A stretch of DNA of 63,261 nt, counting the filler, from Collodictyon triciliatum (taxonomy: Eukaryota): the NCBI GenBank assembly GCA_043381765.1. It is 5 parts of 5 records of this genome, joined end to end, with 100 filler letters (N's around TTAATTAATTAA, not from the genome) between each part and the next. Parts side by side here need not be neighbours in the genome. Positions count along the whole stretch, not along the records: positions 30,297 to 46,554 come from JBHJMP010000194.1; 4 more parts are not named here. One strand, 5' to 3'. Each line of letters begins with the position of its first letter. Within the stretch, counting starts at the first letter, position 1. Shown piece after piece: positions 21,856 to 46,654 of this stretch. Both the position numbers and the translations under genes were made by a program. The notes under the pieces are model-generated. The model did no database searches, was not told where the DNA came from, and saw nothing but the letters and a program-made list of their open reading frames with translations.

Positions 21856-21955
21856 NNNNNNNNNNNNNNNNNNNNNNNNNNNNNNNNNNNNNNNNNNNNT
21901 TAATTAATTAANNNNNNNNNNNNNNNNNNNNNNNNNNNNNNNNNNNNNNNNNNNN
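21856..21955. other. Artificial scaffold-joining linker
   Basis: N44-TTAATTAATTAA-N44; the 12-mer at 21900-21911 has stop codons in all six frames. Confidence 0.97.
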
Positions 21956-30196: not shown

Positions 30197-30296
30197 NNNN
30201 NNNNNNNNNNNNNNNNNNNNNNNNNNNNNNNNNNNNNNNNTTAATTAATTAANNNNNNNNNNNNNNNNNNNNNNNNNNNNNNNNNNNNNNNNNNNN
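30197..30296. other. Artificial scaffold-joining linker
   Basis: N44-TTAATTAATTAA-N44 (12-mer at 30241-30252). Confidence 0.97.
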
Positions 30297-30496
30297 AGCC
30301 CGCAAGACTCACAGCAGATACGCGCATACAGCGACAGCGACGATGACGTGGAAGGAAATCTCGGCTCCTCTTCAGAATCCTGGCACTCGAGCCCTTCATA
30401 GCCAACCACCGACAAGCCCGCACATCGCAAGACCCAAGAGCAGCGCATCTCCAAACCCCGAAAGCAATCTCCACTAAACTACCAATTCAGACTGGC

Positions 30497-30928
30497 GTGA
30501 ATATGGTTAACATAGGAGGCATCAAGACAGTCTATGTTACTTGTCCGAAAGGATACTTCAAAGCGAAGGCAACACAAGAACCAGCGCCCACCAAAGATAG
30601 TCCGTTTTCTCTGTCCCAGCCCATCGCACCGAGAACCAAGGAGCAAGACCAAACAGGACAAGTCGAATCCAAGCTTGGAACTTCACACACCAAAGACAGA
30701 CCGAGCAAGCAGGAGCGTATGTTTCTAAAACCACAAACGCGTATCCGTGCTCCGGTTAAGCGAAGTCCACTGCCGGCTACGCATGGTTCCGAAACCAGGG
30801 GACGGTCAAGCGCCACTTCCACTAATTCCAGACAAACAACGATGCATCGCTTTCTATCTGAGTCGCCCAGCAAGAAACGCAAGGAAAGTGACCCGCTGTC
30901 CCCTCAAAAGACACATTTTGTGGAATGA
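30497..30928 (+). CDS. Probable disordered C-terminus of a nuclear protein (5' part unclear or off-scaffold)
   Basis: 143-aa ORF rich in Ser/Thr/Lys/Pro, ending QTTMHRFLSESPSKKRKESDPLSPQKTHFVE*, which contains a PIP-box-like motif, a basic NLS and SP sites. Confidence 0.4.
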   Translation: MNMVNIGGIKTVYVTCPKGYFKAKATQEPAPTKDSPFSLSQPIAPRTKEQDQTGQVESKLGTSHTKDRPSKQERMFLKPQTRIRAPVKRSPLPATHGSETRGRSSATSTNSRQTTMHRFLSESPSKKRKESDPLSPQKTHFVE

Positions 30929-31513
30929 AATAGGACGTAAAAATGTTTGATATGGATGGTTGAAAGGATTCGTCGGAATCTTCTTGAAGTAACTGCCATG
31001 TGCGTACTTTCATCGACCCGACAACTTCATTCGCTCTTCTATCAGTCTCGAATGCAACCAGATATCGCGTTGAAGCTGATTCACCTCGGGTAGAATAGTC
31101 TGCGTGTGAGAACACTTCTCTCCTTTCTATTTTCTTTTTCTTTCCACCCAAAACACAAAATCTCCAACCACACAATCCGGGGTCTTCGCACTGTCTCGTC
31201 CACAGATCGTTTCTTGTCCTAGAGGCGAAGGCGGTTACCTCGGCTTTGTTTTCTCTCAACAAACTGTTTGAAGACCACTACAACGCCCAGACTTACTGGC
31301 AGGTTTACTTCGTAGCGCGTTTTTCTCTGCTTTTTTTTTTATTCATTGTGGGGTGGCGGCAGCTGTTCGGCAGCATGGAATTGGGGTCGGGTGGGGAGGG
31401 ACGCGACATGGTAGAAGCTTCTGCCGGTCGATCTGTAGAGGATAGTTAAGTGTCTACTACGTGAAGGTTGGAGCAGGTGGGTGATATGGATAGGGTAAGG
31501 AAAGCGTTGTTTG

Positions 31514-31602
31514 TTTGTGGGTCAGTATTTGGGACACATTTCGCTCATTATCTTTCGCGTATAGTAAGGATTTGGCACGCGTCGCTTCATCACATCCACA
31601 AA
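31514..31602 (-). ncRNA. Candidate box C/D snoRNA, intronic
   Basis: The minus strand reads TTTGTGG-AT-GTGATGA (box C, 31593-31587) ... CTGA (box D, 31525-31522)-C-CCACAAA. This gives a 7-bp terminal stem and a 72-nt C-to-D span, inside a predicted GTGAGA...CTTAAC...TACAG intron (31636-31433). Confidence 0.65.
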
Positions 31603-33481
31603 TGCGAGATATTCCAGTGCGGTGGAACATTCTCACTCAGGAGAGAGACTGCTTAGCAAGGTAGTGAGTGAACGGGGGAGGGTGTGTTGAGAGGGCCTCT
31701 TACCTCTCGTGTGTCGCGTCTGATTCTTCCTTCCGTTGCTTCGCCTCGCTCTCTTGTTCTCGGGGTCTTCTCGATGCTCAGTGTGTGTCCGCCTGACTGT
31801 TCTTCTGCCTATGAGCGCCACTGTAGAATTACACGAGATGTGCACTATATATACTAGGGCCGAGTTGTGGGCTACATGGTTCCACGCAGGCCACAACGTG
31901 GAAGCACCCCAGCCCACACAATACTGTCCCATACAATACAATATCATATTATATATTATTTGGATGACAAAATTGCATAATATAAAACCACGTGACTTCA
32001 AAAATACCTTAAAAATATTAAATATATTATATTCCGCATTTGAATGACTGGTCTTTTGGTTCTATTTTTTGCTTTATCTGTCTCTGTCTATTCACGCACG
32101 CGCGGTTGCACGAGCGAGATGAATGAGTTTGTCGGTCGTCCCTCCTAACTCGAGGGTTGCCATAAAGTTATCCAACGGTTTGCGAGTTTGCCAAACGAAA
32201 TAAATCAGTGCTGTTCCGCATATTCTGTTGCGCTTGATTACCTACACGCGCAGTTCACGTGTCTTTCCTCCTCGGTCTTACTCTGCTACATTCGAAGGGG
32301 TTCGGTTGTTCTGGTTCTATTAGTGTTAATATTTACGACGTATGAAAAACAAAACTAATCAAAAAGAAAAAAAGATATTAGAAGCCGAACCGTACAGAGA
32401 CAGAGAAATACATACACATTATTCGCAGTAGTCAATTGATGAATAAGCTCCTAATCCCCTTCATCGCCCATCTAGCAGGAGAAATGCCAAAAGGAGAAGA
32501 AGGCGCAAAGGCTATGATGACCTCAAAACAATCCCAAGCATGAAAGTTAACACCGAAAAAATGTCAGTCTTTTTTATTTTTTTATTTTGCGCCTGCCTCG
32601 CGTCGCAACCGGTCGCCTGACCCATCTCAGAAGGTTGGTGAGCAACTTAACCAATCAAAAAAAAAATCTGGGCTGGTGCCTTTTGCTAAACTATCGGCCA
32701 TTTTGCAACACTGATTACTTCCATATTGGGATTGTACTCGTCATTATGACACACCAACCAATTTTTTTCCTGTTTCTCTCCAATCAGATACGCCTGCCAG
32801 GACTTCGCCCCAACAAAAAAAAAACAGATCAGATTGACGCTTTGTGAGAAAGACCGAGACTCGCAGCCATATTTTTGAATGTATATCCCTATTGAACCAA
32901 TCGAGTCGGTGCTGCTACAACAATGTGTGTATCTATAGTTGTCGATCAGTTATAAAAGGCTGATTTGTTTTATCCTTCCCTTGTATTCTGTCCTTTGGGT
33001 CAAGATTTGTATTTTCTCCCAGCTGGCAAAGTGAGACGCAAGGGGTTTCTTTTCTTTTCTTTTTTCAACAATAATTCACAGGCATACATAGCAGCTACAT
33101 TATACTAAAACGTATAATATACATTAAGGTTGTTTCTCTTTTATCGGAGTCACACAAGGAGAGGAAACCATTCCTTCTGCACTTAAAATACTGACTCTAA
33201 AGCTGACAAGAACAAGTAAACCAGTATGGCATTGGCCACTTCGTCCAGGTTTATGGTATGCATAGACTCGCTGGTGTTTTTTGCCTTCCATAATTAAATA
33301 ATTTAGCATATGAAGAGACTTCTGTTTTTGTGTATTTAATATATCTGTCTCTCTTTTATTTTATTTTTTTAAAAAAAGGAATATTCTCAAATGGCCCACC
33401 ATTCACCATATTGATATATGAACAAATTTTGCGTGCTGTGCTCACTTTATTTTAAAAAAGAATCACTCGCATGTTTTGTAC

Positions 33482-46554: not shown

Positions 46555-46654
46555 NNNNNNNNNNNNNNNNNNNNNNNNNNNNNNNNNNNNNNNNNNNNTT
46601 AATTAATTAANNNNNNNNNNNNNNNNNNNNNNNNNNNNNNNNNNNNNNNNNNNN
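46555..46654. other. Artificial scaffold-joining linker
   Basis: N44-TTAATTAATTAA-N44 (12-mer at 46599-46610). Confidence 0.97.

Follow-up and report, generated by a model that had tools for sequence, protein, structure and literature searches.

The window, a stretch of 63,261 nucleotides of Collodictyon triciliatum DNA, contains a box C/D snoRNA of 89 nt, terminal stem included, on its minus strand (31514..31602, read from 31602 to 31514). This RNA is very probably an ordinary intron-derived guide that marks one base of the SSU rRNA for methylation, the mature RNA and the methylation both being predicted; its mechanism is the ordinary, textbook one. A first-pass annotation of the same DNA, which left the strand unstated, had described an intronic box C/D snoRNA with no target identified, perhaps orphan or lineage-specific. 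The intronic box C/D part of that description is supported. The absence of a target is not, since the D′ guide is a perfect 12-nt complement of the organism's own 18S rRNA and recurs, in metagenome contigs, in C/D-type RNAs with unrelated host genes. The RNA is thus not an orphan.

We are almost certain that the element is a real box C/D snoRNA. It has an RUGAUGA sequence near the 5′ end (box C, GUGAUGA, 31587..31593) and a CUGA near the 3′ end (box D, 31522..31525), closed by a 7-bp terminal stem with its 5′ arm at 31596..31602 and its 3′ arm at 31514..31520. The stem begins beyond one A-C mismatch, and a check of the register agreed with a kink-turn. Box C, box D and the 7-bp stem with kink-turn spacing had been noted in the first-pass annotation, and all are present. 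The window has a single instance of both boxes combined with a stem of at least seven Watson-Crick pairs, and none of 200 block-shuffled windows has any. The internal C′-like AUGAGCG noted at the same time is also there, at 31542..31548 (31548-31542 as read on the minus strand). The D′ box is degenerate. It can be read as a five-base form, CGCGA (31555..31559), from the sequence, the register of related RNAs and the box type described in PMC5389607, its function as such being putative; the alternative is a four-base GCGA (31558-31555). Together, (C)GCGA and the C′ box AUGAGCG can form the G-A pairs and three Watson-Crick pairs of stem II, in which the last three bases of C′ would pair with the D′-side CGC. 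The 12-bp guide to 18S rRNA stops 1-2 nt ahead of the D′ box. Complementarity of at least 10 nt to rRNA or snRNA beside the box is found on the D′ side and not on the D side.

The RNA resembles the methylation-guide box C/D class in its terminal C/D boxes and stem, its internal C′/D′ motif, its 12-nt rRNA guide beside D′ and its apparent position in an intron, but it fits no family in Rfam 15. The Infernal/Rfam search that had been proposed as a check gave 0 matches in the window at gathering score, and at E values up to 10 it gave two chance lncRNA matches on the opposite strand.

To look for targets, we took the rRNAs and U1, U2, U4, U5 and U6 of the organism from its own genome. The SSU and LSU rRNAs, of 2153 and 4571 nt, are encoded by long, A/T-rich rRNA genes (L003/L005, G000:C1045). 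Nucleotides 31-42 of the RNA (the D′ guide, 31561..31572, read 31572-31561) make an unbroken run of 12 Watson-Crick pairs with SSU 1424-1435, so that the C at 31564 faces G1427, and this is the sole perfect match of 12 or more among the SSU and LSU rRNAs. Of 20000 dinucleotide shuffles of the interior, 332 reached 12 bp anywhere and 54 did so beside a box. The anchored score was reached by 0 of 300 guide shuffles, a null that is partly post hoc, as the D′ position was picked after the match had been seen. Among 2021 real 61-mers of the window, 132 reach 12 bp with these targets, probably via A/T tracts. RNAduplex ranks three pairings above the 18S duplex (−17.3 kcal/mol), namely LSU 2999 (−25.2), LSU 2270 (−23.0) and SSU 1740 (−21.6); these are bulged and G-U-rich, and none lies beside a credible D′ box. 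The upstream guide proposed in the first-pass annotation ends five bases into the real guide. Its implied D′ box, at CUUA, was tried and rejected, the best anchored pairing being 10 bp including 2 G-U.

The mitochondrial-type rRNA loci (L004 and L006) have no perfect 12-nt match to the RNA. The 85-kb contig C834 carries a second, weaker-scoring SSU/LSU pair, which is probably mitochondrial, and the 5′ half of U6 lies inside an ATT repeat (L011, G000:C517:15469-15516) and is probably a pseudogene.

Related RNAs were sought by scanning metagenome contigs for box C, the D′ guide and box D, which yielded 113 loci. Two features outside the search pattern are carried by 11 of these, representing six sequence types (L012/L099; L016; L021; L024/L070; L025/L077/L081; L028/L050). 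One is a pair of further rRNA-complementary bases, for a duplex of 14-15 bp, and the other is a single base followed by C-N-G-A (CUGA, CCGA or CAGA) straight after the guide. Every locus with a C-N-G-A box (11/11) also has the two-base extension, where base composition predicts 0.08. The remaining 102 loci were not retained, being probable chance matches; 94 of them have neither feature, five have the extension only, two have GA without the C, and one (L118) has a shifted GA without the extension. By the +5 rule all 11 related loci indicate G1427, with the qualification that they were selected with the window guide as the pattern and that their targets were read on the SSU rRNA of this genome, not on their own.

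Of eight terminal pairs in the tested register, 5-7 form in four types and 2 in the remaining two. Five loci, when tested, proved to lie beside coding stretches of WD40, ankyrin or enolase, and the G+C content of the related loci runs from 0.41 to 0.68. From these different host genes and this range of composition we infer that the loci derive from different eukaryotes. An Rfam search of 10 of the 11 returned none at gathering score. Likeness among the related RNAs is confined to the boxes and the guide, and common descent is therefore likely, not proven. The six types have the D′ guide and the predicted G in common with the window RNA, but differ from it in their four-base D′ boxes, their longer duplex (the window guide is 2 bp shorter), their D guides and their hosts.

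Some of these RNAs have further features. A second guide, of 12-13 bp to SSU 1003-1015 (U1005 here), is present in the types L012/L099 and L025/L077/L081. L012 and L077 lie in different introns of what is apparently one WD40 gene, which suggests a move within the host gene. In L021 (396-484) the D-side guide aligns weakly with yeast snR41 (E 0.88) and the D′ side is the 18S guide described here, which suggests that guides may have been recombined between snoRNAs.

After the guide, the window RNA has an A and then CGCGA, with one base more than the related RNAs have there. With the GCGA reading, the plain +5 rule leads to A1426. According to PMC5389607, when a D′ box has no 5′ C of its own but is directly preceded by one, the box is lengthened to five bases in yeast and methylation moves one base further, to +6; the cases shown are snR13 (CUCGA) and human U24 with an inserted base. 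By analogy, this rule would give G1427 for the window RNA, the same base as in the related RNAs. The window RNA is like snR13, for which the paper shows +6 targeting, in having a D′ box without a 5′ C and a C before it, but the target of snR13 is 25S 2280/2281 and there is no sequence homology between the two. The same source states that snR13 marks two sites, for which accessory pairing is required, and on reading the six-base D′-C′ loop of the window RNA no pairing of that kind is evident. Given an active guide, G1427 alone is the site that we moderately favour; A1426 alone seems unlikely, and methylation of both bases rather improbable.

It is likely that the D′ guide actively directs methylation at 18S 1426-1427. 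A real snoRNA in which this guide is decaying or non-methylating, so that the RNA acts as an 18S folding chaperone or is kept for a D-side target, would account for the non-consensus D′ box and for a duplex of 12 bp against 14-15 bp in the related RNAs. It also finds a precedent in PMC8053127, where, of 244 Arabidopsis sites that had been predicted or reported before, 145 went unconfirmed. We nevertheless consider it very unlikely: all 12 of the 12 guide bases are perfectly complementary to the 18S rRNA, the three D′/C′ Watson-Crick pairs are kept, and the pattern of box C plus guide occurs in one place in the whole 75-Mb assembly, with no second copy having both.

The spacer 5′ of box D (the D guide, 31526..31541) had been listed without a target in the first-pass annotation, and our search agrees, as it gave no significant target among the SSU, 5.8S and LSU rRNAs and U1, U2, U4, U5 and U6. 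Its best pairing is of 9 bp, one of them G-U, with LSU 296-304. This side of the RNA is probably inactive. The main target might instead lie elsewhere, at LSU U300 through the D guide, at LSU 2271-2287, or in tRNA, 5S, U3, minor snRNAs or mRNA. The pairing with LSU 296-304, which is extendable past a bulge, and that of the 5′ spacer with LSU 2271-2287 (−23 kcal/mol) are in keeping with such a target, but the former is equalled in 119 of 300 D-guide shuffles, the latter is not beside a credible D′ box, and no pairing exceeds 8 bp in U1, U2, U4, U5, U6 or 5.8S. A real snoRNA with its main target elsewhere is highly unlikely, and we retain the 18S site as the probable target.

For comparison with known methylation maps, the SSU numbering was converted to that of other organisms. 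Only an offset of 199 agrees with the identities of six methylated bases of Arabidopsis near the site, and it makes G1427 Arabidopsis 1228. On the assumption of no indels, Table 2 of PMC11542601 equates the base with yeast 1224, human 1281 and Ostreococcus 1195. Between C1219 and U1235 the available portions of PMC8053127 and PMC11542601 list no methylation in Arabidopsis and in tomato or tobacco, respectively. Nothing appears at 1194-1195 in any row of Ostreococcus Table S4 (PMC7671301), or between 1133 and 1255 for Dictyostelium in the accessible part of PMC8817022. Yeast and human sites are given in PMC11542601, as far as it is available, only where they are shared with plants. Searches of the literature by guide and target strings and by site names found nothing relevant, and passages of PMC10324135 and PMC6461891 contributed nothing further; the Chlamydomonas catalogue or the supplements of PMC11542601 may list the site. 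The target is probably common to several guides and uncatalogued. To our knowledge, the site is also absent from the full yeast and human maps.

SNORD110, Arabidopsis snoR14 and Ot-CDsno90 (18S Um1288, Um1235 and Um1202, respectively) pair with an overlapping stretch of 18S rRNA. The U that these three target is U1434 here, inside the duplex of the window RNA, but the predicted site of the window RNA is 7-8 bases upstream of it. Membership of the SNORD110/snoR14 family was rejected, as the box geometry leads to 1426-1427, and nt 37-40, where methylation of U1434 would require a D box, belong to the guide.

The snoRNA is flanked by the GT at 31703 and the AG at 31433 of a 271-nt GT-AG intron on the minus strand (31433..31703), between host exon 1 (31704..31810, with an approximate 5′ end, contigs extending to 31780-31809) and host exon 2 (31340..31432, with a provisional 3′ end and an AATAAA at about 31344), both on the same strand. 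Splice signals and RNA contigs suggest this intron. Four public runs, all stored as contigs, were compared with the locus and contain at most 0.17 of the words. The exact joint 31432/31704 is present in two contigs of one of the four (X1), whose shorter overhangs, 23 and 25 nt, fall below the 31-letter bridging bar; the second contig has a one-base variant beside the joint. X1, X4 and X11 also contain unspliced contigs that span the intron and may come from precursor or DNA. Exon 1 lacks an ATG (31830-31704 scanned), the longest ATG-started ORF in exon 2 is 34 codons, and exon 2 differs by an indel between the window and a second copy of the locus. The host transcript is therefore probably non-coding, as well as short. 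That the box motifs fell together in this intron by chance, with no stable RNA, is extremely unlikely: the lack of an Rfam match and of any sight of the mature RNA in the four contig-stored runs would fit, but the stem and boxes arose in none of the 200 shuffled windows, and the rRNA guide, the paired C′/D′ motif, the intron position and the matching guides elsewhere are further features.

From the end of the stem to the last intron base (31433) is 81 nt, which bears out the distance of about 80 nt to the 3′ splice site given in the first-pass annotation. The mammalian rule to which that distance had been referred serves as an analogy only, this being a 75-Mb genome with a 2153-nt SSU rRNA. 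A candidate branch point, CUUAAC, lies at 31445..31450 on the minus strand, with its A 67 nt 3′ of the stem. PMC8162545 places the optimum for intronic C/D assembly some 50 nt before the branch point, a rule that would carry over to this intron by analogy.

The second copy of the locus (L002, G000:C3519) corresponds to 30297-31553 of the window with 91% identity overall. It is identical over 31378-31553, where its contig ends inside the RNA, and carries the 3′ half of the snoRNA. It is either an allele or a duplicate merged in the assembly. As the identical stretch also covers the intron and the contig ends there, we left it out as evidence of conservation.

In the mechanism that we propose, the short, probably non-coding host transcript is spliced, as the joint in the RNA contigs supports, and a box C/D snoRNA of about 80 nt would be trimmed from the intron and, as in others of its family, bound by Snu13, Nop56, Nop58 and fibrillarin. 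The D′ guide would then pair with its complement at 18S 1424-1435. The D′ box, without a 5′ C but with a C before it, would act as a five-base box and position fibrillarin on G1427, the base indicated by the related guides with ordinary D′ boxes. The case is evenly balanced for a broader proposal, in which an uncatalogued family in several eukaryotic lineages methylates this 18S G (yeast 1224), and the window copy, having gained one D′ base, either still marks the ancestral base through the five-base-box shift or methylates a pair of neighbouring bases. If true, the yeast D′ ruler model would have a natural test case outside fungi. A supposed orphan becomes a testable rRNA guide, and one that points to a predicted 18S methylation site common to several poorly studied eukaryotes and not found in Rfam or in the lists for land plants, Ostreococcus and Dictyostelium. 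Its one-base-longer D′ box makes a sharp prediction, G1427 versus A1426, on how the methylation ruler is set.

The host gene is followed directly downstream by a dispersed repeat of about 1 kb (30297-31268), with at least 40 full-length matches in the assembly at 85-100% identity (40 scored of 541 candidates). Three of its ORFs gave no Pfam match. Other copies end at about 31268, some of them followed by A-rich tails, like the end of a retroelement. Spacers at 21856-21955, 30197-30296, 46555-46654 and 60294-60393 each consist of a 12-base A/T linker with a run of N on either side, and the contigs that flank them are not necessarily adjacent. Parted from the snoRNA contig by a spacer is a multi-exon protein kinase gene on the minus strand (29270-27900), one stretch of which matches Pfam Pkinase (E 8.5e-25), and which we take to resemble Fused/STK36.
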